Shown piece after piece: positions 3,806 to 60,754 of a stretch of 64,000 nt of DNA. The notes beneath the pieces are model-generated. The model was not told the DNA's origin. It worked only from the letters and a program-made list of their open reading frames with translations, and did not search any database. Source of the DNA: a phage. The stretch is taken from sequence record PX880103.1; one strand, given 5' to 3'. The first letter of the stretch is position 1. Each line of letters starts with the position of its first letter. The translations under genes and the position numbers were made by a program.

Positions 3806-3846
3806 TTTCTAATCTCCGTAATTCTGTATCAGTAGTTGATAGTTGT

Positions 3847-3876
3847 ATAGTACCACAGTATGCTTTGGTTGTAAAC
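3847..3876 (-). promoter_or_regulatory. Early promoter for motA (GTTTAC-N18-TACTAT) with conserved leader
   Basis: Minus-strand GTTTAC at 3871-3876 and TGgTACTAT at 3847-3855, followed by leader ACAACTATCAACTACTGATACAG...GGAG. Confidence 0.7.
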
Positions 3877-3910
3877 CGTTTTGTGAAAAAAAAAATTTTA
3901 AAATAAAAAA

Positions 3911-3930
3911 GGGAGAGCCTCGGCTCTCCC
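3911..3930 (-). terminator. Hairpin plus T-run downstream of gene 52 operon
   Basis: gggagagcc..ggctctccc inverted repeat followed on the minus strand by TTTTTTATTTT. Confidence 0.65.
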
Positions 3931-3935
3931 TAAAA

Positions 3936-4085
3936 TTACTGCATGACTGTGATAACTGTCATGATAACACGTTGAATTCCAAACGCAAGAAGACCTCCTG
4001 CTACGGCTGGAACAACACCTAACCCTGCCAGTAAAATGCTACCAGATACTAATGCAGCGCTTGTAATACCAATGAATGGACTCAT
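3936..4085 (-). CDS. Small hydrophobic peptide (49 aa)
   Basis: Below track cutoff; ATG overlaps gene 52 stop; MSPFIGITSAALVSGSILLAGLGVVPAVAGGLLAFGIQRVIMTVITVMQ, one or two TM helices. Confidence 0.4.
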   Translation of the reverse strand: MSPFIGITSAALVSGSILLAGLGVVPAVAGGLLAFGIQRVIMTVITVMQ

Positions 4086-5410
4086 TTGATTTCCTCTAAA
4101 TCTTTGGTGTATTCAGTAACTACATCAGTAGTTTTCCAATATTCGTTTTCTTCTTTTTTAGCTTTAGCTTCTTCAGCAAGTTTCTTTGCTTCATCGGAAG
4201 TCATATGAAAAATATTCATTCCAACTAGTTTATCAACATAAGAAGAATACATATCGATTTTCGAAAGTTCTTCGGTCAGTTCTTTACGAGTTTTACCCTG
4301 TACAACAATTTCACCTGAAATTACTTTCTTAATGAAATGTGCCTTGGCAAAGGCTAAACGAAAAGCTGACTCAGTTTCTTTAATTTTGTTATCAATTCGT
4401 TTTTGGACATAAGTTTTACGAACTTCAACAAAGTCTTTAATTAAATCAACTACGTTATCGTAAACTTGTAGTTTTCCTTTCTCATTAATAACCGTAATAT
4501 TCTGAGAACGACGCTCAATCAACCCGAAGTCTTTCATAATTTTTGCATGGCGTTCTTCTTCGTTATCGCTCAAAGAGTATTCTTTGCGGAATTTAACTTT
4601 GAAGCCAAAACCATGCTCACCACAAGCATCATCCCATGTAATGAAGCCTTTATCTTCAAGTGGGTCTAAGATTTTACTCACATAAGTTTCACGATCATAC
4701 TTGTACGGAATCTCAGTGATATGCATTTGAGTTCGTGAAGTAAACTTATATGTTCCACGAATTTCATATTGCCCATCAATTTCAACGACTTCACCGCGAA
4801 ATTCTGGGAATTCTACCTTCGGTTTAGTTACTTTCTTTCCTTGAAGAGCTTGCAGTACAGCTTTCTTGACAGAAGAAACACTATGAGGAAGAATGTAAGT
4901 TGCATAACCAGTTGCAATACCGGAAACGCCATTAAGAAGAACAGTAGGAATAATAGGCAAATAGAAAGCAGGCGGAATGTGTTCTTTATCTTGATGTACC
5001 GGAGCATATTCAGTATCTTTATATACGTTATAGAAATTTTTACTTACACGAGCAAAAATATAACGACTTGCTGCTGCTTTTTGAACGGTACGAGAACCAA
5101 AGTTTCCTTGACCATCTAACAGAGGAAAGTTATTATTCCAGGTGTTAGCCATCAAAGCGCCCGCATCTTGTGCAGAGTTTTCGCCATGGTGATATCCAAG
5201 GTCCGCTACACCACCTGCGATAGAAGCGAGTTTGTGAAACTTATCTTTATTTCCTCGCGCCAAATCAAGAGCTCGAGCAATAACAAATCGTTGAACTGGC
5301 TTAAATCCATCAATCATATTTGGAATAGCACGATTTTCAACCGTGTACATAGCATAAGCCAATGCTTCATTATCAATGATACTTTTTAAATCGCGATTAT
5401 TCAGTTGCAT
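4082..5410 (-). CDS. 52: DNA topoisomerase II medium subunit gp52
   Basis: 442 aa as in T4 gp52; GyrA-like breakage-reunion sequence; ATG confirmed. Confidence 0.95.
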   Translation of the reverse strand: MQLNNRDLKSIIDNEALAYAMYTVENRAIPNMIDGFKPVQRFVIARALDLARGNKDKFHKLASIAGGVADLGYHHGENSAQDAGALMANTWNNNFPLLDGQGNFGSRTVQKAAASRYIFARVSKNFYNVYKDTEYAPVHQDKEHIPPAFYLPIIPTVLLNGVSGIATGYATYILPHSVSSVKKAVLQALQGKKVTKPKVEFPEFRGEVVEIDGQYEIRGTYKFTSRTQMHITEIPYKYDRETYVSKILDPLEDKGFITWDDACGEHGFGFKVKFRKEYSLSDNEEERHAKIMKDFGLIERRSQNITVINEKGKLQVYDNVVDLIKDFVEVRKTYVQKRIDNKIKETESAFRLAFAKAHFIKKVISGEIVVQGKTRKELTEELSKIDMYSSYVDKLVGMNIFHMTSDEAKKLAEEAKAKKEENEYWKTTDVVTEYTKDLEEIK

Positions 5411-5414
5411 AAAT

Positions 5415-5555
5415 TTACCATACTAGTGAATGTAGTGCCATAATAACATCAGAAATGAAAAGCACGACTTGAATTAATCCGAACATTACTCCATAATATA
5501 GTGCTACCAATAAAGTAGCAAGGGCTAATGAATAGCCCAAGATTTTCTTAATCAT
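5415..5555 (-). CDS. Small membrane peptide (46 aa, 52.1 position)
   Basis: Below track cutoff; MIKKILGYSLALATLLVALYYGVMFGLIQVVLFISDVIMALHSLVW; start overlaps upstream stop. Confidence 0.4.
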   Translation of the reverse strand: MIKKILGYSLALATLLVALYYGVMFGLIQVVLFISDVIMALHSLVW

Positions 5556-5706
5556 TAGTGGATAACAACACAAATGTTAAATATGCACACATACCCTGGG
5601 CTAAAGCTTGTGAAAACACACTGCTAGCATCGATACAGATAGTTAAAACACATGCTACTATCCAACAAATAAATGAAATAACTCCTAATAATTTTGCGAT
5701 ATTCAT
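5548..5706 (-). CDS. Small membrane protein (52 aa, ac-like by position)
   Basis: Below track cutoff; GAGGAAA SD; two hydrophobic segments; T4 ac (about 51 aa) sits between stp and 52.1. Confidence 0.45.
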   Translation of the reverse strand: MNIAKLLGVISFICWIVACVLTICIDASSVFSQALAQGMCAYLTFVLLSTND

Positions 5707-6845: not shown

Positions 6846-6959
6846 TCACATAAATCCAAAGTAAACGTTTAACACATCAATCATTAAAACGATTGGGAAT
6901 ATACTCAAAACTATTAGTATTATAACTACATTCCATATAGCTTTAATAATCTTTTTCAT
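6846..6959 (-). CDS. Small membrane peptide (37 aa)
   Basis: True ATG follows the promoter cassette GGAGGAACAGAAA; MKKIIKAIWNVVIILIVLSIFPIVLMIDVLNVYFGFM. The track's 82-aa version is the cassette read in frame. Confidence 0.45.
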   Translation of the reverse strand: MKKIIKAIWNVVIILIVLSIFPIVLMIDVLNVYFGFM

Positions 6960-6987
6960 TTTCTGTTCCTCCGTAGTTGATAGGGTA

Positions 6988-7017
6988 ATAGTACCACGGA
7001 AGAACAGTCTTGTAAAC
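6988..7017 (-). promoter_or_regulatory. Early promoter cassette (GTTTAC-N18-TACTAT plus conserved leader)
   Basis: Minus-strand GTTTAC at 7012-7017 and TACTAT at 6988-6993. Confidence 0.6.
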
Positions 7018-7024
7018 AACTTTT

Positions 7025-7123
7025 TTAAAAATATTCGTAATAAATGTGAATACCAACTACTACCGCTGAAACCTGTGCAACCCACCACGCACAAGCAATA
7101 AGTACAGAATTCATAATTTTCAT
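7025..7123 (-). CDS. Small hydrophobic peptide (32 aa)
   Basis: Below track cutoff; SD TGAGG; MKIMNSVLIACAWWVAQVSAVVVGIHIYYEYF. Confidence 0.35.
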   Translation of the reverse strand: MKIMNSVLIACAWWVAQVSAVVVGIHIYYEYF

Positions 7124-7206
7124 AATAACCTCATTACAAAAGTAAATATTAAACAAATTACTGGAATACTAATTAACCAAACAAAACACCACCACAATGA
7201 ACTCAT
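7120..7206 (-). CDS. Small hydrophobic peptide (28 aa)
   Basis: Below track cutoff; MSSLWWCFVWLISIPVICLIFTFVMRLL; overlaps the next start. Confidence 0.3.
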   Translation of the reverse strand: MSSLWWCFVWLISIPVICLIFTFVMRLL

Positions 7207-7263
7207 AGCTCAATCTCAGCGATTTTCATTTCATTCTCCAAATCCGTATCAGTTGATAGTTGT

Positions 7264-7293
7264 ATAGTACCACGGTCCTTGTGGTATGTAAAC
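7264..7293 (-). promoter_or_regulatory. Early promoter cassette with duplicated imm.1 leader and first four codons
   Basis: Minus-strand GTTTAC at 7288-7293 and TACTAT at 7264-7269; leader ...GGAGAATGAAATGAAAATCGCT is identical to the imm.1 start region (33889-33903). Confidence 0.6.
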
Positions 7294-7308
7294 TGTTTTG
7301 TGAATTTT

Positions 7309-7866
7309 TTAAATGAAAAGATACCATCCATTGTAGTTGCTTTTTCTTACAACCTTACGAAGGTCTTCTCTGTCACCGATGAACTTCGGAGTGTACTGGA
7401 TGACACCTGGATGAATTTCTTTAGTGTTGAATATAATTATACAGTCAGCGACTTGATGATTTAGAATGGGCCCTAGATTTATTCCAGAACCGTATGGATA
7501 CTCTCCGCTGCATCCTGTTGTTACAGAAATCCAACGTGAGTCAGTTTGGTGTGTCTTAACTTCTACACGAAGCCCGCAGTATTTTGGATGTGCTAAAACA
7601 TCCCATGCATATGTGTACGGATCATCGACATCTTCTTGGCCTTTATTGACATACCCGCTTAGCCAATCTGCTACAAAAAATTCTGCGTACACAGCGATAC
7701 GGCATCTTTCGATAACTTCTGCCTTATCCTGATTTGGGTTTTGTTTTAAAGAGTATCTTGCAGTATCAGCAATTTTGGCCTTCATTTCACTAGTCAAGTC
7801 ACTGTTCGATAGGGTAAATGACGGAATCTGAAATAGTCTCTGCAAACCCGGATTCGTTTTCTGCAT
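7309..7866 (-). CDS. denB: Endonuclease IV DenB
   Basis: 185 aa as in T4 DenB, between ndd and rIIB; ATG confirmed. Confidence 0.8.
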   Translation of the reverse strand: MQKTNPGLQRLFQIPSFTLSNSDLTSEMKAKIADTARYSLKQNPNQDKAEVIERCRIAVYAEFFVADWLSGYVNKGQEDVDDPYTYAWDVLAHPKYCGLRVEVKTHQTDSRWISVTTGCSGEYPYGSGINLGPILNHQVADCIIIFNTKEIHPGVIQYTPKFIGDREDLRKVVRKSNYNGWYLFI

Positions 7867-7932
7867 TTAAACTTTCCTTTTATGTCGGAATCACTGGTAT
7901 TCATATAATAAATCATAATTTCTCTTAAAACA

Positions 7933-7950
7933 AAAGGGCCGAAGCCCTTT
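7933..7950 (-). terminator. GGGCCGAAGCCC-type hairpin
   Basis: aaagggc-cgaa-gcccttt; T-run on both strands. Confidence 0.55.
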
Positions 7951-7953
7951 ATT

Positions 7954-8148
7954 TTACTTGAATTGTGCAATTCTTTTCTCTAGACATTCAGCATAAGATT
8001 TCATTGAGATAAACTGCGAAAGCAGCAGTTCTTGCTCAACTGCACTAACTGTTAGAAACTTTGCGCTTTCTAAAAATTTACTCAGTGCATTAATTTTGAG
8101 CATTAATTGATCGTATTCTTCTTTTACTCGTGCTTGATAACCTAACAT
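7954..8148 (-). CDS. Hypothetical protein (64 aa) between rIIB and denB
   Basis: ATG with AAGGAAA SD; bracketed by two GGGCCGAAGCCC hairpins. Confidence 0.55.
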   Translation of the reverse strand: MLGYQARVKEEYDQLMLKINALSKFLESAKFLTVSAVEQELLLSQFISMKSYAECLEKRIAQFK

Positions 8149-8162: not shown

Positions 8163-8178
8163 AAGGGCCGAAGCCCTT
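8163..8178 (-). terminator. GGGCCGAAGCCC-type hairpin overlapping rIIB stop
   Basis: aagggc-cgaa-gccctt; weak T-run, may be an RNA-stability stem rather than a terminator. Confidence 0.4.
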
Positions 8179-9115
8179 ATTTAAATTGTTCAGTAACGTC
8201 TTCAACTACTTCATATTGGCAGGTACGCATTTTAGCATCGTTGTAATCAATCGGAATTGATACTACATCGCGAGGATGAACTTTAACTTTTACAACTCGG
8301 CTGGTTGAACTACCAAAGTGACGAATATAAGATTTAGAACACACATGCAGACCACGAGAACAAGTCTGTGTATCATCGTCATTCACACGAGTACGCGGCA
8401 TTTTAACTACTTTACCCGGACTGTTATCAAAGGTATTTGAGTGACAGTCAAAGTAATTGCTACGAACTACTTTCCAAGCATAGAAGTAACCATCTTCTGT
8501 AATTTCAATATCGTTTGCTACCAAGAAATCAAAGAGTCGAGATACCGCTTTTTGGCTTGGGTTTTCCAACAGATTTTCCAAGAACGGAAAATAAAATTCA
8601 AAGTTTTCGCCTTTTTCCATCGAGTCAAGAATACGATCAACCAAACCAGACCGCAATTCAATATTTTGATAGAACAAGCTTCCACCTTCAATTCGAACAT
8701 CGCCGGAAATATATTTTTCAACAGCACGACGAACATTAATTTTTTGTGCCGCTTCTTCCAACTTATCCGCTACAAGCAGATTAAGAATTTCCTGGAAGTT
8801 TGAATGAGTATTAGGAGTTGCGTTATAAGTTACGCCATCAACAGTAATTGAAATGAATTTTTTAGATGCATTCCAAATAATGTCAGATTTAGCAACTGGA
8901 GCAATAACTGCATCGCTATTAACTTTAACTGTAATATCACCGCTAATAGTAACTTTAGGGTGTTTAGCTTCTTCAGCATTTTTCAAAACACGGCGGATTG
9001 TGTCAACCGATACACCTTGCCAATCAGCCAATTCCTGTTGGGTATAATTACCACTTGAATACAGCTTAACAATTTCAGCTTGTTCGTTTTTGGTCAGGCA
9101 TTTAATATTGTACAT
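8177..9115 (-). CDS. rIIB: rIIB protein
   Basis: 312 aa as in T4 rIIB; adjacent to rIIA; ATG confirmed. Confidence 0.9.
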   Translation of the reverse strand: MYNIKCLTKNEQAEIVKLYSSGNYTQQELADWQGVSVDTIRRVLKNAEEAKHPKVTISGDITVKVNSDAVIAPVAKSDIIWNASKKFISITVDGVTYNATPNTHSNFQEILNLLVADKLEEAAQKINVRRAVEKYISGDVRIEGGSLFYQNIELRSGLVDRILDSMEKGENFEFYFPFLENLLENPSQKAVSRLFDFLVANDIEITEDGYFYAWKVVRSNYFDCHSNTFDNSPGKVVKMPRTRVNDDDTQTCSRGLHVCSKSYIRHFGSSTSRVVKVKVHPRDVVSIPIDYNDAKMRTCQYEVVEDVTEQFK

Positions 9116-11543: not shown

Positions 11544-11573
11544 ATTATACCACATCCTTGTGGTAAAGTAAAC
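11544..11573 (-). promoter_or_regulatory. Early promoter for rIIA.1/rIIA (GTTTAC-N18-TATAAT)
   Basis: Minus strand GTTTACtttaccacaaggatgtggTATAAT; -35 overlaps gene 39 stop. Confidence 0.65.
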
Positions 11574-13390
11574 TACTGGCTCATCCATTCTTTACGAAGG
11601 TCAGCATTATCTCCCATGAGCATTTCAAAAAGCTCTTTCCAGTTCTCAGGAAGTTTAACAACATCATATACTGGGTTTTGAATCATCTCACGATATTCAG
11701 ATTTTTCCAAAGAGCCAAGTCCTTTAATATAACGGATGCTATGTTTAGGTAGAGCATCTTTGGCACTCTCATATTCAGCGACTGTATAAAACCATTCTTG
11801 TTTTTTACCGACCTGAGCGATGATTACAGGAGTTTTGACAAAGCGAATTCTTCCTTGTTCAAACAGTTCTGGCCAATTACTAAAAAATCCGAGCAGAGAA
11901 GGATAAATGCTTCCTAGACCATCATGGTCAGCATCAGTCATAATAGCAATATTATGATAATTCAAGTTTTCAGCTTTTTCACCGAGAACTAATCCAGTGA
12001 TTGCGCAAATATCAAATAGTTCTTTGTTTTTAAGCATATCGGCATATGACATACCCCAGCTATTAAGAACTTTACCGCGTAATGGATAACCACCGTGAAG
12101 TTCTTTATCACGAACATCAATAAGATATCCGATAGCAGAATCACCCTCGGTTAAGAACAATGTAGTGTCAGCATCTTTACCGCAAAGATTCGCTTTAATA
12201 TGTTTATGAACCTTAGCTTTAGAAGCCTTTTTAGCTGCTTTAGTTTCTGCTGCTTTTTCTGCTGCCAATTTACGAGCTAATGCTGCTTCAATAATTGGCA
12301 TTAGAATTGCTTCATTATTTAGAATAGCGCGTGAAATCTTTTTAGCATCAAGTTGAATATGACTACGAATTTCACCAAATGGAGAAGTCAAACGCTCTTT
12401 AGTTTGAGAGTCAAATCGCATGTTTTTCATATCGCGAACAAACATAACGATAGTCAAACATTCTTTAACACGTGCTTTAGTCACATCAATTTTGAACTTA
12501 CGTTTGATTTGTGGAATAAGGTCTTCACAAATATCATCCATAACACAGTCAATGTGATGGCCACCATTCTTAGTATGAATGTTATTGACGTATGTTAATT
12601 GACGAAAACCATCCGGTGAACGACCAACCGCAATAGAACAATTTTCTTGTTCTTGAACGATAGCATGTTCATCATATTGGCGTGCGTATTTCTTAAAATT
12701 ACCCTGAACCTTTTTACCATTAAAGGTAAATTGAATATCAGGATAAACAACAGCAAGTGTTTGGAGACGATCTAGTGTAATGTCAAGATAAACTTGGGAC
12801 AGCTCATTAGTTTCAAATGACATAAAATCAGGAATGAAAGTAACACGGGTTCCTTTCCATTTTCCAGGAATATCTTCCCATGATTTATTTTCCATGCCGT
12901 TTGAACAACGAACTACAATATTATTTTGACCATCGCCAGTTTCACCAACAAACATCACAGAAAAAATGTTTGTCAAACTAGAACCAACACCATTCATACC
13001 GCCAGTGACGCGTTCTTTATCATCACCAAAGTTACCACCTGCTTTTGGAATAGTCCATGCAGCAACAGGACCAGGAATTTCTTCACCGGTAGGTGTTTTA
13101 ACCATTGCCTGCGGAATACCACGACCGTTATCTTCAACTGTTACTTGATTGTTTTTAATAGTAACATTAATTTTATTTGCGAATTTAAACTTAGTACGAA
13201 TACCTTCATCTACTGAGTTATCGATAATTTCATCAATAAGCTTAACAAGACCAGGTACATACTGAACACTTTCCCATTTACCAAACAGAAAGCGCTCATG
13301 CATTTCATTAGCAGAAGAGCCAATGTACATGCCGCTACGCTTTTTGATATGTTCAATATCGCTCAGAATTTTAATTTCATTCTTAATCAT
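11573..13390 (-). CDS. 39: DNA topoisomerase II large (ATPase) subunit, uninterrupted gene 39
   Basis: 605 aa from ATG at 13390 (track adds a GTG codon); N-terminus MIKNEIKILSDIEHIKKRSGMYIGS as in T4 gp39; continues through the region that is gene 60 in T4. Confidence 0.9.
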   Translation of the reverse strand: MIKNEIKILSDIEHIKKRSGMYIGSSANEMHERFLFGKWESVQYVPGLVKLIDEIIDNSVDEGIRTKFKFANKINVTIKNNQVTVEDNGRGIPQAMVKTPTGEEIPGPVAAWTIPKAGGNFGDDKERVTGGMNGVGSSLTNIFSVMFVGETGDGQNNIVVRCSNGMENKSWEDIPGKWKGTRVTFIPDFMSFETNELSQVYLDITLDRLQTLAVVYPDIQFTFNGKKVQGNFKKYARQYDEHAIVQEQENCSIAVGRSPDGFRQLTYVNNIHTKNGGHHIDCVMDDICEDLIPQIKRKFKIDVTKARVKECLTIVMFVRDMKNMRFDSQTKERLTSPFGEIRSHIQLDAKKISRAILNNEAILMPIIEAALARKLAAEKAAETKAAKKASKAKVHKHIKANLCGKDADTTLFLTEGDSAIGYLIDVRDKELHGGYPLRGKVLNSWGMSYADMLKNKELFDICAITGLVLGEKAENLNYHNIAIMTDADHDGLGSIYPSLLGFFSNWPELFEQGRIRFVKTPVIIAQVGKKQEWFYTVAEYESAKDALPKHSIRYIKGLGSLEKSEYREMIQNPVYDVVKLPENWKELFEMLMGDNADLRKEWMSQ

Positions 13391-13417: not shown

Positions 13418-13443
13418 ATTATACTCCAGTAATCATAAAGCTA
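13418..13443 (-). promoter_or_regulatory. Middle-promoter-like element (MotA-box-like TAGCTTTA, 12 bp, TATAAT) upstream of gene 39
   Basis: Minus strand cctTTAGCTTTATgattactggagTATAAT directly after the 13443-13460 hairpin; one mismatch to the TGCTTtA core. Confidence 0.45.
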
Positions 13444-13460
13444 AAGGCCCGAAGGCCTTT
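13443..13460 (-). terminator. GGCCCGAAGGCC hairpin
   Basis: aaaggcc-cgaa-ggccttt; follows the stop of the lipoprotein gene. Confidence 0.5.
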
Positions 13461-13720
13461 TATTTAAAACGAATAGTCGAATCCTTGAAGAATAGTCCAG
13501 AACATACTGTTCCTTCTACTTTCTGCCCGGTAGGTCCAATAGCACGAAATCCAGTATGTTGGAAATCATTTTCAGAGCAACCGAACCAGTTATATCCAGT
13601 GATTTCAATATTAGTAAAACCACTTGAAGACAAAACTTTGGTTGCATTATCAGCATCAGTACATCCTACTAAAGACACTACTAATACTAATGCTGCGATA
13701 GAACGATTAATATATTTCAT
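13460..13720 (-). CDS. Putative lipoprotein (86 aa, 39.1 position)
   Basis: From ATG at 13720 (track start is GTG): MKYINRSIAALVLVVSLVGC, signal peptide with lipobox LVGC. Confidence 0.55.
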   Translation of the reverse strand: MKYINRSIAALVLVVSLVGCTDADNATKVLSSSGFTNIEITGYNWFGCSENDFQHTGFRAIGPTGQKVEGTVCSGLFFKDSTIRFK

Positions 13721-14913: not shown

Positions 14914-15012
14914 TACAATTTCCTCATTAATTGAACATTGGAGCGATGCGTTTCAGAAGAGTATCAACACCTTTAGCGAATTTTCCATTTTATTCTCCGA
15001 GTTGTTTTCTGT

Positions 15013-15055
15013 ATCAGTAGTTGATATTGATATAGTACCATAATCAACTACTGAT
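15013..15055 (-). promoter_or_regulatory. Atypical promoter inside a perfect 13-bp inverted repeat (atcagtagttgat / atcaactactgat)
   Basis: The loop carries TGGTACTAT (-10-like); followed by the conserved leader and GGAG; no canonical GTTTAC. Confidence 0.4.
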
Positions 15056-15085
15056 GTATATAGTTTTATGAAAAAATTTTAAACT

Positions 15086-24019: not shown

Positions 24020-24049
24020 ATTATACCATACTCATTTTGGAAAGTAAAC
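24020..24049 (-). promoter_or_regulatory. Early promoter (GTTTAC-N18-TATAAT)
   Basis: Minus strand GTTTACtttccaaaatgagtatggTATAAT. Confidence 0.65.
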
Positions 24050-24065
24050 CAGTAAAATGAAAAAA

Positions 24066-33510: not shown

Positions 33511-33891
33511 TCACTTAATCAAATTTTTTACACATGAATTATAAGAATTCACTACATACTCCATCGGAGCATTTTTACCAGTACGCCACTGGTAATTATT
33601 AGCCCAATTTGCCCAAAGTTCTGCGCAGTAGTTTTCAATTTTTTCTTCGCGTGTAATTACATCAGAATTACGATATGCTTGAGCAGATTCATCTGGACGA
33701 ATAGCTTCGTCAAAATTCGCCTGCATTTGTTCTACTGTCTGTTTTGGAGCTTCTTTATAACACTTGACATTAGGATTATAAAATTTGCTTGAACAGTTTA
33801 CAATTTTTCCTACATCAGACTGATTTATTACCGGTCCTTGAGCTACACAACCAGTAAGACCTAATGCAATAACCAAAATAGCGATTTTCAT
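33511..33891 (-). CDS. Putative lipoprotein (126 aa, imm.1 position)
   Basis: ATG at 33891 after leader GGAG (track start at 33903 is TTG in the leader); signal peptide MKIAILVIALGLTGC with lipobox. Confidence 0.6.
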   Translation of the reverse strand: MKIAILVIALGLTGCVAQGPVINQSDVGKIVNCSSKFYNPNVKCYKEAPKQTVEQMQANFDEAIRPDESAQAYRNSDVITREEKIENYCAELWANWANNYQWRTGKNAPMEYVVNSYNSCVKNLIK

Positions 33892-33925
33892 TTCATTCTC
33901 CAAATCCGTATCAGTTGATAGTTAT

Positions 33926-33955
33926 ATAGTACCATAGAAGAACAGTCTTGTAAAC
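33926..33955 (-). promoter_or_regulatory. Early promoter cassette (GTTTAC-N18-TACTAT plus conserved leader) for imm.1
   Basis: Minus-strand GTTTAC at 33950-33955 and TACTAT at 33926-33931. Confidence 0.65.
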
Positions 33956-34044
33956 AGTTTTGTGAAAAAATTTTTTAGGGAATTCTAAAGGTCCAGAATC
34001 ATCTGTTTTTCATAAGTATAGATTTATATTACTTGTATGAAAAA

Positions 34045-41861: not shown

Positions 41862-41876
41862 TTTGTATCCAATTGT

Positions 41877-44329: not shown

Positions 44330-44355
44330 ATTATATCAAACTCTGTATAAAGCTA
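44330..44355 (-). promoter_or_regulatory. Middle-promoter-like element (TAGCTTTA, 12 bp, TATAAT) upstream of gene 47
   Basis: Minus strand cccTTTAGCTTTATacagagtttgaTATAAT directly after the 44355-44372 hairpin; same arrangement as 13418-13460. Confidence 0.45.
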
Positions 44356-44372
44356 AAGGGCCGAAGCCCTTT
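44355..44372 (-). terminator. GGGCCGAAGCCC hairpin overlapping alpha-gt stop
   Basis: aaagggc-cgaa-gcccttt. Confidence 0.5.
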
Positions 44373-45573
44373 ATTTTGTAATAATGTCAAACTGTTCTTT
44401 AAAGCAGAAGCTTGAATCTTGATGCTGATACAAAAATTCATATGCTTTTTCTCGCTCACGGTCATAAAGAGCTCGGTCAGATGACAGTTCTTTAATACGT
44501 TCAAATGTTGATTCCATATCATTTTCATCAAACCAAATGATACCGCTATCATGCGAGGTCAAAGGAGTATTATCAACACGGAATTTTAAATTTTCGCCAG
44601 TAGATTTCCAAAATACTGGAATTGTTCCACATGCACCAAGCTCGAGGTGAGTATATTCTAAAGAACGTTGTAGATATTTTTTATCCAACTTACTCAACTG
44701 ATAACCAAATCCGGATTTACTCATGCGTTCAAGCATTTCGCTATTTACATAGCGATCGAGAATTTGCGTTGGCAAATTAGGAGCAATTTTAATTTGGTCT
44801 ACTTGATGAAGACGATAATACTCGTATGGAATTCCTTTTTCTTTAATAGGAATGAACGCTGGAGAACGTTCCAGACCTTCCATAATAGTACTTAGTCCTG
44901 CAGGTTTAAGATGTTTTTCGTGAAAATCAAACATCTGATAAAAACCTTTCCATGTAGTCGTACGACCAATCCAACGGTTGACATTCATGTTAATTTCAGA
45001 AACATCTTTCCAGTAGGTTGACCGAACCTTCGCAATATCCATAGGAGGCTGAAAGTTATATACTGTCGGCGCTTCTTCAATATCATCAAACAAAGAAACT
45101 GTTTCAGGATACCATTCTTTCATCAGAACTTTATTAAAATCACCATTATCAGAATGGCTAAAAATAACATCAGCTCGACGAACAGTTTCTTCTAATCCCA
45201 AATTTCGGCGCAAAGAAAGAGAAGAATGGTCATGCTGATAAACTACAACACGAACAGAAGGTTTAATGTTATCAATAATTTTTTTATAGTTATTAATAGT
45301 GTCTTCTTCAACTGAAGTAGCAGGAACTGAATTGATAATTAGAATATCACAATCATTTACCAGCTTAAGTGTTTTATCGTATTCTTTTGCCAATAAAACC
45401 GGAATTGAAAATGATTTATAATCATGCGCACAGTTACGAGTAAATGATTTATCTTTGGCATAAACCAAAGTTACTTCATGACCATTTTTAATAAACCAAT
45501 CACGTTGCTCAAGAGAAAATTTAGTTACACCACAACCTTCAAGACCTCGAGCCATAAAAATACATACTTTCAT
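44371..45573 (-). CDS. a-gt: DNA alpha-glucosyltransferase
   Basis: 400 aa; long stretches match T4 alpha-gt (CIFMARGLEGCGVTKFSLEQRDWFIKNGHEVTLVYAKDKSF...); ATG confirmed. Confidence 0.9.
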   Translation of the reverse strand: MKVCIFMARGLEGCGVTKFSLEQRDWFIKNGHEVTLVYAKDKSFTRNCAHDYKSFSIPVLLAKEYDKTLKLVNDCDILIINSVPATSVEEDTINNYKKIIDNIKPSVRVVVYQHDHSSLSLRRNLGLEETVRRADVIFSHSDNGDFNKVLMKEWYPETVSLFDDIEEAPTVYNFQPPMDIAKVRSTYWKDVSEINMNVNRWIGRTTTWKGFYQMFDFHEKHLKPAGLSTIMEGLERSPAFIPIKEKGIPYEYYRLHQVDQIKIAPNLPTQILDRYVNSEMLERMSKSGFGYQLSKLDKKYLQRSLEYTHLELGACGTIPVFWKSTGENLKFRVDNTPLTSHDSGIIWFDENDMESTFERIKELSSDRALYDREREKAYEFLYQHQDSSFCFKEQFDIITK

Positions 45574-45626
45574 TTAATATCCTCATTGTTTTGGTTTATT
45601 TTACCAAAAATTTATAAAGCAATATA

Positions 45627-47694: not shown

Positions 47695-47732
47695 ACATTA
47701 TCCTCAATTACGTTAAAATTTTATTATCCAAA

Positions 47733-47748
47733 AAGGGCCGAAGCCCTT
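47733..47748 (-). terminator. GGGCCGAAGCCC hairpin plus T-run
   Basis: aagggc-cgaa-gccctt followed on the minus strand by TTTTTGGATAAT. Confidence 0.55.
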
Positions 47749-47947
47749 AGCTAAACTTTTTGGCACCCTTCCAGCCTTCATACATCATTGCGGCTGATAT
47801 TAATATTGCTCCTGAGCAACTTGAATATTTGTGATTCCAAAACCAGTTCAGAAAAACTTCGTCATCAATACCTTGGGCTATCATATTTTCAAAGAACTGA
47901 CGACGAGCTTCAGCAATTCGCTGCGATAATTTAGATTCAGGATTCAT
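47747..47947 (-). CDS. Hypothetical protein (66 aa)
   Basis: ORF track. Confidence 0.45.
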   Translation of the reverse strand: MNPESKLSQRIAEARRQFFENMIAQGIDDEVFLNWFWNHKYSSCSGAILISAAMMYEGWKGAKKFS

Positions 47948-48383: not shown

Positions 48384-48552
48384 GGAGTTTAATTTCCTTA
48401 GCAACTGAACTAAATACAGCACGATCACAAATCATACGTTTGTTCCATTTAATCACAGTATAATGAACATCTAGATCATCGACTGCTGTAACAATAACGA
48501 TATGTCCGTTAACACGATAATACTGGTCAATTTTAATCTCTTTATCAACCAT
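48376..48552 (-). CDS. Hypothetical small protein (58 aa)
   Basis: Below track cutoff; first ORF after the 48583-48612 promoter; SD GAGGAA. Confidence 0.4.
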   Translation of the reverse strand: MVDKEIKIDQYYRVNGHIVIVTAVDDLDVHYTVIKWNKRMICDRAVFSSVAKEIKLHG

Positions 48553-48582
48553 ATCAATTCCTCAAAGGTAATTCATATGTTA

Positions 48583-48612
48583 ATAATACCATAGTTTGAA
48601 CTTGTTGTAAAC
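48583..48612 (-). promoter_or_regulatory. Early promoter (GTTTAC-N18-TATTAT)
   Basis: Minus strand GTTTACaacaagttcaaactatggTATTAT. Confidence 0.6.
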
Positions 48613-48693
48613 AACTTTGTGAAAAATATTTTAGGGAATGATAAGAAAGGAACGATAGCTTAGAATGGTAATATACAGAATGCGAGAAAGAAA

Positions 48694-49352: not shown

Positions 49353-49823
49353 TTAATCATGTTTCCACACCCCATCGGTATTTGACCAAAGTCGCTGATT
49401 ATCTGATCCTCGCCACAGCTTTTTAGTCGGAAGATTTTTCTCATACTTCCCATCAATAATAACATCAACATATTTAAGCATTTCTAGTTGTTTAATATCT
49501 TCAAACTTATATCCTGTCCACAACCAAATGCTTTTATTGGGATAAAGATTTTTTACTGTTTGAACAATGCAATGAATAACATCTCGGTTATCAGGATAGA
49601 GAGGGTCTCCTCCAGTTATAGTTAATCCTTCTATATAATCATTATCCAAACATTCAATTAATTGTTCTAGTGTTTCACCGGTGAATGGAATACCATTTCT
49701 AGCATTCCATGTTGATTTATTATAACACCCTTCGCATTTATGCAAACAACCTGTAACGAAAAGAACGACCCTGCAACCAGGGCCATTCACAAAATCGCAA
49801 GGATAAAATCTATCATAATTCAT
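49353..49823 (-). CDS. nrdG: Anaerobic ribonucleotide reductase activase NrdG (radical SAM)
   Basis: 156 aa as in T4 NrdG; CLHKCEGC cluster motif. Confidence 0.9.
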   Translation of the reverse strand: MNYDRFYPCDFVNGPGCRVVLFVTGCLHKCEGCYNKSTWNARNGIPFTGETLEQLIECLDNDYIEGLTITGGDPLYPDNRDVIHCIVQTVKNLYPNKSIWLWTGYKFEDIKQLEMLKYVDVIIDGKYEKNLPTKKLWRGSDNQRLWSNTDGVWKHD

Positions 49824-51637
49824 TGGTGTTTAACCCTATGCATGATTTCTTTATTTTTACCGAGATTAAATCCGCGCTCGTTCGGATTTCCCAAATAACC
49901 ACATGTTCTTCTTATGGTATTCATCTTTTTAGGATCAGTTTCTCCACAAATAGAACAAACAAATCCATTTTCAGTAGGAGTCATTTCATGGGTACTTCCA
50001 CATGTAAAACATTTATCTACTGGCATATTAACACCAAAATAATCTAAATGTTGTGCAGCATAATCCCATACGGCCTCAAGACCTTTTAAGTTATTTTTCA
50101 TATCAGGAAGTTCAACATAAGAAATGTGACCACCTGTCGCAATGAAATGATACGGCGCTTCACGAGAAATCTTTTCAAACGGAGTAATATTTTCTTCTAC
50201 TGAAACATGGAAACTGTTAGTGTACCAGCCTTTATCGGTAACATCTTTTACACTTCCATATTTTTCTGTATCAAGTTTACAGAAGCGATAACAAAGGTTT
50301 TCAGCAGGAGTCGAATATAAACTAAAAGCAAATCCGGTTCTTTCAGTCCACTGTTTAAGATGAGCATTCATTTTAGTTAAAATTTCTCGTCCAATATCAC
50401 GACCGACAAGAATATTCAATTCGTGAATACCAATGTATCCTAAAGACACTGAACTTCTACCGTTTTTAAATAACTCAATTATGTCGTCATCAGGTTTAAG
50501 ACGAACCCCGAATGCACCTTCTTGGTAAAGAATAGGAGCAACAGTTGCTTTAACTCCTTTTAAGGAACTAATTCTACACATCAAAGCTTCAAAACACAAA
50601 TCCATTCGTTCATTGAATAATTCAACAAATTTCTGTTCATTGAACTGTGTTCCAATATAAGAATCTAACGCAATGCGAGGAAGATTCAGTGTTACAACAC
50701 CAAGATTATTACGTCCATCAAGAATTTCATTGCCAGTCGAATCTTTCCATACGCTCAAAAAACTACGGCAACCCATTGGAGAAACAGGAACAGATGAACC
50801 AGTGATAGCTTTATTGTTCTTAGCTGAAATAATATCAGGATACATCCTTTTGCTTGCACACTCTAGAGCAAGCTGCTTAATATCATAGTTCGGATCGTCT
50901 TTATAAAGATTAACACCTTCTTCAACGAACATAACAAGCTTAGGGAAAATAGGAGTTATTCCATCACGACCAAGACCTTTAATACGATTTTTCAGAATTG
51001 CTTTCTGAATCATTCGTTCAGTCCAGTCAGTTCCCGTACCAAATGTAATTGTTACAAAAGGAGTCTGTCCGTTTGAACTAAAGAGAGTATTTACTTCATA
51101 TTCATAAGCTTGGAATGCATCGTATACGTCTTTTTCTGTTTTAGATTGAGCATAATTCAACGCATCAGCGATTTGCCATTTTTCTGCATCCTCAATATGT
51201 TTTGCATAGGTGCGTTTAACATAAGGAGAAAGTACTTTATCTACATTCGCAAAAGTCGTTCCGCCATATTGGTGAGAAGCAACTTGTGCAGTAATTTGTG
51301 CCATAATTGCAGTAGCAACGCCAATTGATTTAGGAGTTTCAATCTGTGCATTACCTAGCTTAAATCCGTTCTCAAGCATTCCTTTTAAATCTACTAAACA
51401 GCAATTAGTAAATGGAAGAGCAGGGGAATAATCAATATCATGGAAATGAATAATTCCGCTTTCATGCGCTTTCATAATAAAAGACGGGACCATATTTTTG
51501 GCAATGTGTTTAGACACAATACCAGCCATAAGGTCCCGTTGAGTTGGAAAAACACGAGAATCTTTATTAGCATTCTCGTTTAAAAGGTCTTTATTAGTTT
51601 TATGAATCAATCCTTCAATTTCTTTTTCAATTGTCAT
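49820..51637 (-). CDS. nrdD: Anaerobic ribonucleotide reductase NrdD, uninterrupted
   Basis: 605 aa; C-terminal glycyl-radical motif RRTCGYLG and zinc ribbon CFTCGS...CSICG; no intron interruption. Confidence 0.95.
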   Translation of the reverse strand: MTIEKEIEGLIHKTNKDLLNENANKDSRVFPTQRDLMAGIVSKHIAKNMVPSFIMKAHESGIIHFHDIDYSPALPFTNCCLVDLKGMLENGFKLGNAQIETPKSIGVATAIMAQITAQVASHQYGGTTFANVDKVLSPYVKRTYAKHIEDAEKWQIADALNYAQSKTEKDVYDAFQAYEYEVNTLFSSNGQTPFVTITFGTGTDWTERMIQKAILKNRIKGLGRDGITPIFPKLVMFVEEGVNLYKDDPNYDIKQLALECASKRMYPDIISAKNNKAITGSSVPVSPMGCRSFLSVWKDSTGNEILDGRNNLGVVTLNLPRIALDSYIGTQFNEQKFVELFNERMDLCFEALMCRISSLKGVKATVAPILYQEGAFGVRLKPDDDIIELFKNGRSSVSLGYIGIHELNILVGRDIGREILTKMNAHLKQWTERTGFAFSLYSTPAENLCYRFCKLDTEKYGSVKDVTDKGWYTNSFHVSVEENITPFEKISREAPYHFIATGGHISYVELPDMKNNLKGLEAVWDYAAQHLDYFGVNMPVDKCFTCGSTHEMTPTENGFVCSICGETDPKKMNTIRRTCGYLGNPNERGFNLGKNKEIMHRVKHQ

Positions 51638-56287: not shown

Positions 56288-56317
56288 ATTATACCACATC
56301 CTTGTGGCAAAGTAAAC
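56288..56317 (-). promoter_or_regulatory. Early promoter (GTTTAC-N18-TATAAT) for paralogue B
   Basis: Minus strand GTTTACtttgccacaaggatgtggTATAAT; nearly identical to the rIIA.1 promoter. Confidence 0.65.
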
Positions 56318-57336
56318 TAGTTCAGTGCATTTAGTGCATTGTTCAGTTTAGAACGTTGCTTTGTCAGATTTTGAACCCTTGACTGAGCTTGTTCTAACAC
56401 CTTTTCAGCTTCTAGCACTTCATTGGTCGCTTTAATGAGTTCAGCATCTACTGCCTTAAGAGACTTCTCAATCGCGTCAGCGTGCCATTTTTCTACAGGT
56501 TTAAAATTTGAATTTTCAGTAGGAAGAAAACTCACTTTATTAAGTTTACATGCATCTATATTGCTTGAGCTATACATCCAAAATTTAGGATCGTTTGATG
56601 AGTAATTGGATAAATTTAAGATATCTTGCACTTCCTGCTTTTTCTCTCGCGGGACTTCGTCCTTTCTCAAAAAATCGTATTTAAATGAAACGATCATATC
56701 AAGTTCATATGTTGTTGTGTCTAATTTAAATCGCTCAAAACGAGGTAAAATCTTAGACTGAACAGCGGCAACAACATCCATATACTTAAATGCTTCTGTC
56801 AACTGCGATTTAAGGCATTCGCAAATTGAAAGAGAATTTTTTGTATTAGGTTTAAAGCTAATTCGTGCAGTTCTGTTATTTTCTTTTAATGGTCTTACTT
56901 CCATCTGAAGAGTATAACCATCAAATTTCAGATTCTTTAAGTTAATATCAGAACCTTTTAATCGACTAGCCGTCGACAAAATTTGCTTTAATTGTTTACG
57001 GAATAGAGCAATAAATCTCCATTCAATACGATAATGATTTGGATTGAAAAATCCAGATGATAAATCGACCTTACTCTGACCAACACCTTGAACAAATAGA
57101 GGATTTTTATAATCAATAGTTTTACAGAAATCAACGAGCTGCTCACGAGCCGTCATTTGTGTAATATACCCTGCTTCGTTAAAATGACGTAACCATTCAC
57201 TGCTATTCATATACTTAAAGTGAATGGAACTATTAACTCTATCAGGGTCTAAATTATTTTCACACAAAAATGTCATAACATCACGAGTATAACTGGCATT
57301 ACGAACCATATCTTCAATTTGAGAACGAGTTTTCAT
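56317..57336 (-). CDS. Paralogue family member C (339 aa), C-terminal coiled coil
   Basis: N-terminus MKTRSQ...; contains FRKQLKQILSTASRLKG; C-terminus LEAEKVLEQAQSRVQNLTKQRSKLNNALNALN. Confidence 0.6.
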   Translation of the reverse strand: MKTRSQIEDMVRNASYTRDVMTFLCENNLDPDRVNSSIHFKYMNSSEWLRHFNEAGYITQMTAREQLVDFCKTIDYKNPLFVQGVGQSKVDLSSGFFNPNHYRIEWRFIALFRKQLKQILSTASRLKGSDINLKNLKFDGYTLQMEVRPLKENNRTARISFKPNTKNSLSICECLKSQLTEAFKYMDVVAAVQSKILPRFERFKLDTTTYELDMIVSFKYDFLRKDEVPREKKQEVQDILNLSNYSSNDPKFWMYSSSNIDACKLNKVSFLPTENSNFKPVEKWHADAIEKSLKAVDAELIKATNEVLEAEKVLEQAQSRVQNLTKQRSKLNNALNALN

Positions 57337-58699: not shown

Positions 58700-59227
58700 T
58701 TATGCGAGTACCGTCTTTAACCGTTCTTCAAACTTCCGAAGAGTATTCTGGCGTTCAGCTCTTTGCTTTTTGTAAGTTTCAATACGCTCTGAAATGAGAG
58801 TGTATCGTTCATTTACTGATTCTTTCATAAAATCAGGAATTTCACGAGAAGCTTTAATCTCATCAAATTTATCAATAACAGCTTGCTCTTCAGCAATTAA
58901 GTTATCATACATCAAAATATCTTTCTTGATGAACTCAATATCTTCTTGAGTTACACGAGATAATTTAGATGCTTTATCCTTTTTGTACTGTTCGTTAGTA
59001 TCACGAGACCAGTGTAATGTACGATTTTTATTCGTATTCTTGTAAATTTCTACAATACCAATCTCATCAATAATAACGATCCAATTCCAACGGGATTTGT
59101 AAATTTGTCCTCCATCAACCGTGATTTCACCTCCGATTGAGATGTCATTAAAGAACTTGCTTTGTGCTTCTGATTTAAATTTACCATCGTTGTAATTTAC
59201 CAGGTTGAAAATATCTTTAGCGTTCAT
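58700..59227 (-). CDS. Hypothetical protein (175 aa)
   Basis: ATG at 59227 after leader GGAGGAACACAAA (MNAKDIFNLV...); the track N-terminus is the translated cassette. Confidence 0.55.
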   Translation of the reverse strand: MNAKDIFNLVNYNDGKFKSEAQSKFFNDISIGGEITVDGGQIYKSRWNWIVIIDEIGIVEIYKNTNKNRTLHWSRDTNEQYKKDKASKLSRVTQEDIEFIKKDILMYDNLIAEEQAVIDKFDEIKASREIPDFMKESVNERYTLISERIETYKKQRAERQNTLRKFEERLKTVLA

Positions 59228-59255
59228 TTTGTGTTCCTCCGTAGTTGATAGTTGT

Positions 59256-59285
59256 ATAGTACCACAGAGGAACGGTCTTGTAAAC
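59256..59285 (-). promoter_or_regulatory. Early promoter cassette (GTTTAC-N18-TACTAT plus conserved leader)
   Basis: Minus-strand GTTTAC at 59280-59285 and TACTAT at 59256-59261. Confidence 0.65.
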
Positions 59286-59287
59286 AA

Positions 59288-59602
59288 CTAAAAGAAACTT
59301 CTTTCACAATTTTTTCCACTGAACCACGCGCTCACTGCTTTCTTAGTCTCAGGAGCAGTGTTATCCATAAACCATTCAAAAGCAGCCTTTTTATGATTCT
59401 GGAGGGCTTCTCGGGCTTTAATCTGCTCACGGTCTATTAACACTAACATATGAGCCTTTCTTGTCACCAGGGGCTTCTTATGATTTTTTGAATACTCCCA
59501 ATCATTTGTCCATCGCATCGTTGTTGCGAATTGAAGTACAGCTTCTTTAATCTTAGTTTCGTAAATTTCACGAGCCTTTGAGTATAACATCATTACCTCC
59601 AT
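59288..59602 (-). CDS. Hypothetical protein (104 aa)
   Basis: ORF track; its 3' end runs into the promoter cassette. Confidence 0.45.
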   Translation of the reverse strand: MEVMMLYSKAREIYETKIKEAVLQFATTMRWTNDWEYSKNHKKPLVTRKAHMLVLIDREQIKAREALQNHKKAAFEWFMDNTAPETKKAVSAWFSGKNCERSFF

Positions 59603-59691
59603 TTACCAGTTTAATTTTAGTCATCTTTTTGATGGCAGTCCATATAATCTATTTCTGAACTGCCTTTTTGTCATAGAAGTCCTCTTATGAA

Positions 59692-60660
59692 TTATTTCAG
59701 AAGAGTAACCTCAGCAATTTCTTCCCAACCGTTTTTGTCGGTCATAATAAAGTCAGCAAGATAAAGAGCGGTACGCAGTGAAACATTGCGTAAACGGTTA
59801 ACATTGACTTTCATCCATGATAATGCTTTATAAGTTTCTTCATCAGAAAGACCGCGCTTTTGCATCATGTCGGTTGAAAGAATAACATCTTCAACCCTGA
59901 CCATAATTTCTTCATTAGTGTGAACACCCAAATCTAAATAAACTGAGCGGGACACTAATGCTTGTAAATGTGGAGCAAGTTTAGTACCACGGTCTAATTC
60001 GCGGTCAATATCAACGTTTGTGATAAAAACAATTGTTCCTTTAAATTCAAACTCACGATCAATGCCTTTTTCTTCTAAGTAAGAAGATGCAGTGCTCCAG
60101 CAGACTTTACGGGTCTCTCCAGTGTCCAGAGCAGCTTTCAGAAGATTAAGAATGTCCATATCAGAAAAAACATCCACATCATCAATCAAAAGGACAGAAT
60201 TCTCTTCACGATTATTCCAAAGCTGCTCATAAAGACCGATACCAGAGATTTTACCATTAATGCTTTTATACTCAATGTATCCAATATCATTTGCTTTATT
60301 CAAAGCTTTATCTAAAGAATACGTTTTACCAATACCCGCCGCACCAGAGATAATTAATGAACGAATATTTCCGTTAATAATACCATTCGTCATCATTCCC
60401 ATAACATTAAATCTTTTATTAATGCGGGTTTTCATATCTTCATATGATTCTTTAACTTCTTCAACTTTTACACCATCATATGAAATGTCTGATTTATAAA
60501 CCCAAACACCGCGACGTTTACCATCAATTTCAACAAAAACTTTACCGTCTCCTTGTGCATCTACCGGAGCATTATCTGGGAACCATTCGCCTAAGAGTTC
60601 AAAGGTTCCAGAGATTTCTTTACCGAAGTAGATACCCTTATTGATAGTTACAGTTTTCAT
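59692..60660 (-). CDS. P-loop ATPase (322 aa; Walker A GAAGIGKT, Walker B LLIDDVD)
   Basis: ATG at 60660 after leader GGAGAATAAA (MKTVTINKG...); the track N-terminus is the translated cassette. Confidence 0.6.
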   Translation of the reverse strand: MKTVTINKGIYFGKEISGTFELLGEWFPDNAPVDAQGDGKVFVEIDGKRRGVWVYKSDISYDGVKVEEVKESYEDMKTRINKRFNVMGMMTNGIINGNIRSLIISGAAGIGKTYSLDKALNKANDIGYIEYKSINGKISGIGLYEQLWNNREENSVLLIDDVDVFSDMDILNLLKAALDTGETRKVCWSTASSYLEEKGIDREFEFKGTIVFITNVDIDRELDRGTKLAPHLQALVSRSVYLDLGVHTNEEIMVRVEDVILSTDMMQKRGLSDEETYKALSWMKVNVNRLRNVSLRTALYLADFIMTDKNGWEEIAEVTLLK

Positions 60661-60694
60661 TTTATTCTCCAAATCCGTATCAGTTGATAGTTGT

Positions 60695-60724
60695 ATAGTA
60701 CCATAAAGCTTTATGCTTGTAAAC
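60695..60724 (-). promoter_or_regulatory. Early promoter cassette (GTTTAC-N18-TACTAT plus conserved leader) for the ATPase gene
   Basis: Minus-strand GTTTAC at 60719-60724 and TACTAT at 60695-60700. Confidence 0.65.
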
Positions 60725-60754
60725 AACTTTGTGAAAAATTTTTGAAATAAAAAA

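Follow-up and report, generated by a model that had tools for sequence, protein, structure and literature searches.

A repeated early promoter-leader cassette in the early region of a T4-like phage, and its likeness to promoter early stem-loop elements

The early promoters of bacteriophage T4 (the Pe class) were reportedly described by Liebig and Ruger in 1989 and by Miller et al. in 2003, and Repoila et al. are said to have found, in 1994, early-promoter repeats of ~70 bp on the flanks of internal-protein genes. Here we describe a repeated early promoter-leader block, which we call a cassette, in a stretch of 64,000 nucleotides (the window) from a T4-like phage (Tequatrovirus; sequence record PX880103.1). 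According to a review, T4 early promoters combine upstream (UP), -35, TGn and -10 elements with additional conserved regions (Hinton 2010; PMC2988021). Promoter early stem-loop elements (PeSLs) were defined in phages RB49 and phi1, where promoter and terminator activity was shown and mini-circles have crossovers between the -10 box and the ATG; the same study describes analogous repeats, based on T4 early promoters, at internal-protein loci, citing Repoila 1994 (Arbiol et al. 2010; PMC2839356). The sections of Comeau, Arbiol & Krisch 2014 (PMC4122927) that treat these elements extend PeSLs to T4 and PST, illustrate an ndd.4/.5 exchange, and give as a consensus an AT-rich tract, TTTACW-N17-TAYWAT, and a 3' end that carries a Shine-Dalgarno (SD) sequence and ATG. 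Early promoter/leader cassettes and their role as recombination points for small genes are already published. The interpretation put forward in the original prediction, that such cassettes drive the shuffling of accessory genes, is the published one, and the window is another instance of it.

Our analysis leads us to regard it as very probable that the cassettes are paralogous copies of a Tequatrovirus early-gene expression cassette that is PeSL-like in its exchange: the observation holds, and the interpretation finds support, subject to caveats that are weighed below. The window is about 95-98% identical to phages T4, PST and ECO4; its first 20 kb give full-length matches at ~95% to >200 Tequatrovirus genomes, and against T4 the whole window resolves into collinear blocks of 93-98% identity. 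It spans the early region (t/asiA, motA, 52, ndd, denB, rIIB, rIIA, 39, dda, 41, 43, 46, 55, nrdD, nrdC, mobD), and the minus strand carries all of these early and middle genes. The T4 RefSeq and GenBank records contain no promoter features. Scanned against Rfam at gathering thresholds, the whole window gave no matches, so the leaders are covered by no curated RNA family. A generic sigma-70 scan of the window was uninformative (76 matches, 79 expected); the cassette sites do turn up in it, with TG-extended -10 boxes.

The repeat family and its parts

A repeat search of the window yielded a direct-repeat family of eight copies, all on the minus strand, in which a block of 70-100 nt recurs at 3822-3891, 6963-7032, 7239-7308, 15007-15076, 33901-33970, 48558-48627, 59231-59300 and 60670-60739 (copies are named below by the lower coordinate or by a nearby gene). 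All seven minus-strand sites of the original prediction were thereby recovered, together with a weaker eighth at the nrdH promoter (48550-48635) that has only the promoter part in common with the family. The core 22-mer TGGTACTATACAACTATCAACT occurs six times at up to three mismatches, against none in 100 shuffles, and the 28-nt leader ACAACTATCAACTGATACGGATTTGGAG occurs three times at up to one mismatch, against zero expected; an alignment bears out that the copies match well past the promoter hexamers. The cassettes take up 1.1% of the window; copies 7239 and 6963 are 276 bp apart, and copies 60670 and 59231 are 1439 bp apart. A strict early-promoter pattern (GTTTAC with up to one mismatch, N12-15, TGnTAnnnT) matches the minus strand at 19 sites, ~17 of which resemble genuine promoters, and the plus strand nowhere. 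Those of the window's early promoters that have TACTAT as -10 box make up the repeat family, and the ACAACTATCAACT start is present only in the TGGTACTAT subset of the strict-pattern matches.

Read 5' to 3', a copy comprises an A/T-rich UP tract (AAAAATTTTTCACAAAAC), a -35 box GTTTAC, a 15-nt spacer that is different at each locus, TGGTACTAT, ACAACT, a leader, GGAG, 7-9 nt and ATG. GTTTAC-N15-TGGTA(C/T)TAT is found in six of the seven copies first named and in the weaker eighth, copy 15007 having ATATAC at -35; a UP-like tract (AAAA(A/T)TTTTTCACAAAAC-like) lies 5' of the -35 box in six of the eight and is weaker in 6963 and 59231. The spacing had been given as GTTTAC-N18-TGgTACTAT, which needs correction: 15 nt separate GTTTAC from TGGTACTAT, and 18 nt is the count to TACTAT (the normal 17-bp hexamer spacing). 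With the -35/17-bp/TGn -10 form, the UP-like tract, and a position directly 5' of early genes and in their orientation, the blocks have the full anatomy of T4-type early promoters, and their identification as such promoters with leaders stands.

The function of the parts is inferred from sequence and from knowledge of T4: host sigma-70 RNA polymerase would bind the UP tract, the -35 GTTTAC and the extended -10 TGGTACTAT, and transcription is predicted to start 7 nt past the -10 box, at the A of ATCAAC (ACAACT-A-TCAAC). This start prediction is not arbitrary, because two T4 promoters fit the 7-nt rule: 27,044, the map unit at which, in a T4 paper, the region downstream of Pe26.4 begins, is in our T4 pattern scan exactly the seventh nt past TACTAT of the T4 imm.1 cassette, and the rule also reproduces 35,662 for T4 Pe35.3. 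The T4 imm.1 copy thus matches the named promoter Pe26.4.

The leaders are 22-37 nt in length, end in the GGAG SD, and fall into three subtypes, the whole leader being common to three copies only. Type A is found in copies 7239, 33901 and 60670, type B (ACTACGGAGGAAC) in 6963 and 59231, and type C (CTACTGATACAGAA) in 3822 (motA) and 15007. The proposed near-identity through the leader holds among the type-A copies and fails for the others, whose type-B and type-C leaders differ. Most of the cassette is a chain of known functional elements; the leader part without a known role amounts to ~13-15 nt, (ACT)GATACGGATTT.

Another element of the leader is a candidate RegB site. The motA gene is a classic RegB target, and its cassette carries GGAGATTAGAA at the RegB-type site. 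In the part of a review (PMC3014915) that deals with Durand et al. 2006, the strong RegB/S1 cleavage-site consensus is GG*AGRAYARAA: the leader 3' end GGAGAATAAAA matches it at 11/11 positions in 15007 and 60670, and the full pattern occurs twice in 64 kb, both times within cassette leaders. The match is 10/11 in 7239 and 33901 (the type-A copies with G) and in motA, and is poor in the type-B leaders (GGAGGAAC). Two family leaders that were folded from the predicted start are essentially unstructured (free energy, dG, 0 to -2 kcal/mol), and the sequence presents what a RegB/S1 target has, an unpaired GGAG with its 11-nt context in the initiation region. RegB and ribosomal protein S1 would cut the best leader copies at the 11-nt site, shutting off early mRNAs. 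We also noted a type-A variant, GGAGAATGAAATG (7232-7234 and 33894-33896, minus strand), with an out-of-frame ATG-AAA-TGA mini-frame that begins 1-2 nt past the SD and overlaps the true start codon; the window has it at both the ndd and imm.1 copies, T4 at imm.1 only.

The individual copies are laid out as follows. The motA cassette (3803..3931) opens with a terminator hairpin (3931-3910), followed by an A/T-rich UP tract, the -35 GTTTAC (3876-3871), TGGTACTAT (3855-3847), a predicted start at ~3840, the type-C leader, GGAG (3817-3814) and the ATG (3805-3803) of motA (211 aa). In the ndd.4-type cassette (6957..7040), the -35 box (7017-7012), TGGTACTAT (6996-6988) and a predicted start at ~6981 precede a type-B leader, GGAG (6972-6969) and the ATG (6959-6957) of a 37-aa open reading frame (ORF) ending at 6846. 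Just downstream of denB, the cassette at 7227..7315 has its -35 box at 7293-7288, TGGTACTAT at 7272-7264, a predicted start at ~7257, a type-A leader, GGAG at 7239-7236 and ATG at 7229-7227; behind it stands only an 8-codon remnant ORF (MKIAEIEL-stop, 7229-7203), the TGA stop of which overlaps the ndd.6 ATG. The variant cassette upstream of cef (14986..15085) carries the -35-like ATATAC (15061-15056), TGGTACTAT (15040-15032), a predicted start at ~15025, a type-C leader, GGAGAATAAAA (14998-14988) and ATG (14988-14986), and then an 11-codon remnant ORF (MENSLKVLILF-stop, 14988 to 14953).

The imm.1 cassette (33889..33978) consists of a -35 box (33955-33950), TGGTACTAT (33934-33926), a predicted start at ~33919, a type-A leader, GGAG (33901-33898) and ATG (33891-33889), with a terminator-like hairpin upstream at 34060-34045. 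Its spacer is of the kind found with type-B leaders, yet its leader is type A; this copy is a chimera, because a type-B-associated (inverted-repeat-type) spacer is joined to a type-A leader. The nrdH promoter (48550..48635), the weak member, has a -35 box at 48612-48607, TGGTATTAT at 48591-48583, an unrelated leader and ATG at 48552-48550, and shares the UP and -35 part alone. In the nrdC.8 cassette (59225..59308), the -35 box (59285-59280), TGGTACTAT (59264-59256) and a predicted start at ~59249 are followed by a type-B leader, GGAG (59240-59237) and the ATG (59227-59225) of a 175-aa ORF. The nrdC.10 cassette (60658..60772) begins with a terminator hairpin, GGGAGCCTTCGGGCTCCC (60772-60755), and a T-run, and continues with the -35 box (60724-60719), TGGTACTAT (60703-60695), a predicted start at ~60688, a type-A leader, GGAGAATAAAA (60670-60660) and the ATG (60660-60658) of a 322-aa ORF. 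Separate from these copies, another early-promoter subfamily, GTTTAC-TTT(A/G)CCACAAGGATG-TGGTATAAT, lies on the minus strand at 11544-11575, 24020-24051 and 56288-56319, with a small CCACA/TGTGG palindrome within its spacer; the 7239 spacer is related to it.

Every window copy lies at a T4-orthologous place, and the T4 site is promoter-like and the same in sequence; the T4 -10 positions are 163652 (motA), 166786 (ndd.4), 167065 (upstream of ndd.6), 6609 (upstream of cef), 27059 (imm.1), 41685 (nrdH), 53922 (nrdC.8) and 55363 (nrdC.10). Furthermore, across the window, T4 and PST the copies group by locus, with locus-specific, conserved spacers; thus, they were inherited and are not recent insertions: the window phage simply inherited them at the T4 positions. 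The record of phage Lutter annotates predicted promoters at the orthologs of 59231 and 60670, and a terminator at the latter. T4 has further family members beyond the window (e.8, frd.3, mobD.5, motB.2) and a TGATACTAT/TACCCTATCAA subtype at ipI, trna.4, frd.1 and denV. We considered concerted evolution, as the ACT/ACTACT count of the ndd copy varies together with that of the imm.1 copy in three genomes; slippage is an equally possible cause and the copies otherwise cluster by locus, so we do not claim ongoing homogenisation.

Exchange of leaders and small genes at the cassettes

Comparison among phages shows insertion, deletion and exchange of small genes along with their leaders, with the promoter kept. 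Leader/gene swaps or indels with junctions inside the cassette occur at four of the eight sites, namely the motA, denB-ndd, cef and nrdC.10 copies, so that the small-gene turnover expected in relatives was found at these; no variation was found at the 6963, 33901, 48558 and 59231 copies in the genomes sampled. The denB-ndd promoter (spacer ATACCACAAGGACCG) offers the fullest series: it is constant up to ACAACTATCA, and at least four leader/gene arrangements follow in different phages. In T4 and the window, the 8-codon remnant stands behind a type-A leader. A leader of this type is also present in PST, slur13 and ECP2301, there with a 207-nt and a 264-nt gene; the 264-nt gene recurs with a GCTACGGAGGAG leader in ECO4 and teqdroes, with a type-B leader in OE5505, and with a type-A leader in several IMG/VR genomes (the pattern scan of IMG/VR gave 21 loci from ~7 contigs, which are informative on mosaics and too few for statistics). 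The T4/window junction at this locus, ATGAAAATCGCT, is identical to the imm.1 start, and suggests, from 12 nt, that a patch may have been copied from the imm.1 cassette. A simple deletion from a PST-like arrangement was also considered as the source of the 7229 junction; it comes out one A short, and the imm.1 patch fits.

At the nrdC.11/nrdC.10 junction, the extras comprise a 201-nt gene in phiD1, a 150-nt and a 264-nt gene in Ptacy1496, all three in slur14, and a 486-nt gene in T2. Each module has its own promoter in phiD1, Ptacy1496 and slur14, the first promoter past the terminator is unchanged, and the module junctions lie after CTATCAA and before GGAGAATAAAATG; the early-promoter pattern finds no separate promoter in the T2 insert. 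In OE5505 an additional cassette and a 228-nt gene are situated upstream of motA, between 23-nt direct repeats. The cassette upstream of cef is followed in ECO4 by an 89-aa gene; in T4 and the window, only ATGGAAAA is retained, joined out of frame to the tail of this gene. Where the window and T4 have mini-ORF remnants (7203-7229, 14953-14988), the genes of ECO4, PST and others are intact, at 87-89 aa.

How might such exchanges come about? The 22-nt core TGGTACTATACAACTATCAACT and the GGAGAATAAAATG end would give homology sufficient for the T4 recombination machinery, and crossovers between neighbouring copies, for which 7239/6963 and 60670/59231 are the candidate pairs for excision of mini-circles, would map to TGGTACTATACAACTATCAAC; small early genes would then be inserted, deleted or exchanged along with their leaders, the promoter being kept.

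Several observations weigh against this account. Thirteen structural differences separate the window from T4, and not one of them touches a cassette; on whether the cassettes mark mobile modules, the evidence is mixed. When the structural variants were surveyed against five relatives (T4, PST, ECO4, SHFML-26 and B1.1), only two of the ~21 distinct variant sites fell in cassettes (Poisson P ~0.025), an enrichment that is modest, and our targeted inspection of cassette loci is biased towards finding variation there. At the cef-upstream indel the microhomology is only 4 nt long and a second cassette is not required, and since copies group by locus and not by genome, exchange is rare and not a continual homogenisation. 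The upstream stem-loop from which PeSLs take their name is found in only two to four of the eight copies: a clear G+C hairpin and T-run stands just upstream of motA (3931-3910) and nrdC.10 (60772-60755) only, farther hairpins lie 70-100 nt off at imm.1 (34060-34045) and nrdH (48707-48694), and no upstream stem-loop was found at 6963, 7239, 15007 and 59231, which abut the preceding ORF. Finally, the start sites assigned in the window phage are predictions carried over from T4.

The other variant sites are mostly the presence or absence of seg/mob endonucleases, the I-TevII intron, the gene 60/39 split, and glucosyltransferase or dam swaps. Several features of T4 are missing from the window: the mobA/gene 60 split, segF, segA (where the glucosyltransferase region is also different), mobB, mobC and the I-TevII intron (sites 11908-11973, 24372-24408, 31429-32376, 45564-45589, 49803-49823 and 51099-51102); gene-content difference in the region is mostly of this endonuclease or intron kind and is not cassette-linked. 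An 857-bp insertion relative to T4 and PST (window 41852-42710) lies between gene 46 and 46.1, and the ORF at 41877-42731 (minus strand, 284 aa) is a homing endonuclease (PHROG 655, E = 3.5e-45; no Pfam matches). A second repeat family also came to light, a terminator-like hairpin (A)AGGGCC-GAAG-GCCCTT at 7926-7955, 8163-8190, 13436-13465, 36821-36850, 38768-38797, 44348-44377 and 47725-47754: a 219-bp insertion in PST (ORF046) abuts the copy at 36821-36850, and a 204-bp insertion in SHFML-26 lies ~50 nt from that at 7926-7955. These recall the GGGC/GCCC deletion endpoints of Mosig et al. 1998, in the form in which Arbiol 2010 (PMC2839356) cites them.

Inverted repeats across the -10 box

At six of the 19 promoter-like sites in the window, copies 6963, 59231 and 15007 among them, the spacer is complementary to the first 10-20 transcribed nt with a z-score (z) of -4 or lower; the -10 boxes so spanned are at 63463, 59264, 28465, 16729, 15040 and 6996 (minus strand). 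In copy 6963, spacer CTGTTCTTCCG is complementary to leader ACGGAGGAACAG (dG -22.7, z -5.8), so that an inverted repeat spans the -10 box; that of the nrdC.8 copy also crosses this box, with the SD inside its 3' arm (dG -20.9, z -4.4), and the cef-upstream cassette has a 13-nt perfect inverted repeat across the box (z -6.4). In three cases (6963, 59231 and the motB.2 promoter) the SD lies within the 3' arm. In T4, 11 of 31 GTTTAC promoters have a perfect complement of at least 7 nt when their own spacer is set against their own downstream region, as opposed to 2.3% for mismatched pairs. The arms differ between promoters yet stay complementary, and thus it is the symmetry itself that is conserved.

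The inverted-repeat symmetry was reportedly already noted by Repoila et al. in 1994. We think it unlikely, though not negligibly so, that the inverted repeat present in ~1/3 of early promoters (three of them family members) is a selected hairpin in its own right. As RNA, only read-through transcripts that started upstream could form an SD-hiding hairpin, and this would conceal the SD of the next gene, such that a module would depend on its own promoter for translation. As single-stranded DNA, the hairpin would be a target of palindrome- or junction-cutting nucleases (gp46/47, gp49); if so, cassettes would be hotspots of break-induced recombination, more than patches of homology.

Origin of the cassettes and comparison with known systems

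The likeness of the copies probably reflects in part functional constraint on the promoter, start region and RegB/SD site, and in part common descent and exchange, the copies being mosaics of spacer, core and leader segments. Could constraint do all of the work? If selection had brought every copy to one optimum, with no common history and no recombination role, then it would follow naturally that most of the block is made of elements of known function (UP, -35, TGn/-10, start region, RegB/SD), that the copies are stable at orthologous loci in three genomes, and that structural variation is mostly elsewhere. We consider such pure convergence improbable: the ~13-15 nt without a known role, (ACT)GATACGGATTT, are identical at three loci, as is a 28-nt stretch for which the chance expectation is zero; the imm.1 copy joins an inverted-repeat-type spacer to a type-A leader; and unrelated leaders serve other early promoters of the same window. 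Moreover, one gene (nrdC.10, or the 264-nt gene of the ndd region) has three different leaders in different phages, and indel junctions fall exactly at cassette edges.

Gene-sized modules at the same junction in different phages might instead point to a dedicated mobile element, either an integron-like site for a site-specific recombinase or the end of a small transposable element, and the discussion in Arbiol et al. (PMC2839356) does raise a helper protein as a possibility. Yet that discussion also reports that T4 recombination needs only short homology, and in our comparisons there is no fixed crossover core: junctions lie after CTATCAA, at ATG or at GGAGAATAAAATG, some with unrelated microhomology of 4-8 nt. 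The cassettes have neither terminal inverted repeats nor target duplications, and the annotation tables of T4, ECO4 and PST list no integrase or transposase, so that a fixed core, a recombinase and terminal repeats or duplications, the marks of site-specific cassettes and transposable elements, are all missing from these sites; we judge a mobile element very unlikely. Least credible of all, to the point that we give it almost no weight, is that the repeat codes for a true N-terminal peptide (...GTIQLSTTEE...) common to several proteins. At three sites one frame runs open through the block, and the three in-frame N-terminal ORF extensions quoted in the original prediction were found exactly so; each starts from a TTG overlapping the -35 box and lacks an SD of its own, whereas a GGAG-N7-ATG start stands at the end of the extension. 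The short forms are annotated in T4, ECO4 and PST, the predicted transcript start falls within the supposed coding block, and the copies differ in frame because of ACT and leader indels.

For annotation, these results indicate that the blocks should be labelled as early promoters and 5' leaders, the TTG-started ORF extensions trimmed, and the mini-ORFs behind 7239 and 15007 marked as remnants of genes that are intact in relatives. The window is one more genome that fits the PeSL picture, and it offers clear cases in which the leader was swapped while the promoter stayed fixed; in this lineage, most of the change in gene content is due to homing endonucleases and not to cassettes. The specialists' view of T4 early transcription is unchanged by these results.

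The T4 genes e, soc, 49 and I-TevI have their SD hidden by a hairpin in read-through transcripts, an internal promoter providing the translatable mRNA; likewise, in 6963, 59231 and the motB.2 promoter the SD region would be paired with the spacer, although the T4 cases use late or middle promoters and those here would be early promoters. Compared with RegB/S1 sites of T4 early mRNAs, the leaders similarly have GGAG as early-gene SD followed by an A-rich tract; the type-B leaders of the window differ in fitting the consensus poorly, and cleavage is here a prediction from sequence. With the T4 early promoters of the Pe class the cassettes share the UP tract, the -35 GTTTAC, the TGn-extended -10, the extra conserved start-region positions and a place upstream of early genes on the early strand, and there is no essential difference between the two. 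From other early promoters of the window, which have TATAAT-like boxes, they are set apart by the -10 TACTAT and by the common start region and leader parts. Mini-circles have been shown for RB49/phi1 only, not for T4-type cassettes; unlike PeSLs, the cassettes have a terminator hairpin immediately upstream at motA and nrdC.10 only, with two more 70-100 nt away, and four of the window copies either adjoin the end of the preceding gene or extend into it. In other respects the proposed PeSL likeness agrees with the 2014 definition and with the published ndd locus of T4/PST: the composite motif is present (AT-rich tract, early promoter, and SD with start codon at the 3' end), and adjacency to indels or replacements is seen at the motA, denB-ndd, cef-upstream and nrdC.10 copies and not at the other four. 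Like PeSLs, the cassettes are present in many copies in plastic early regions, and the small ORFs that neighbour them differ between close relatives.

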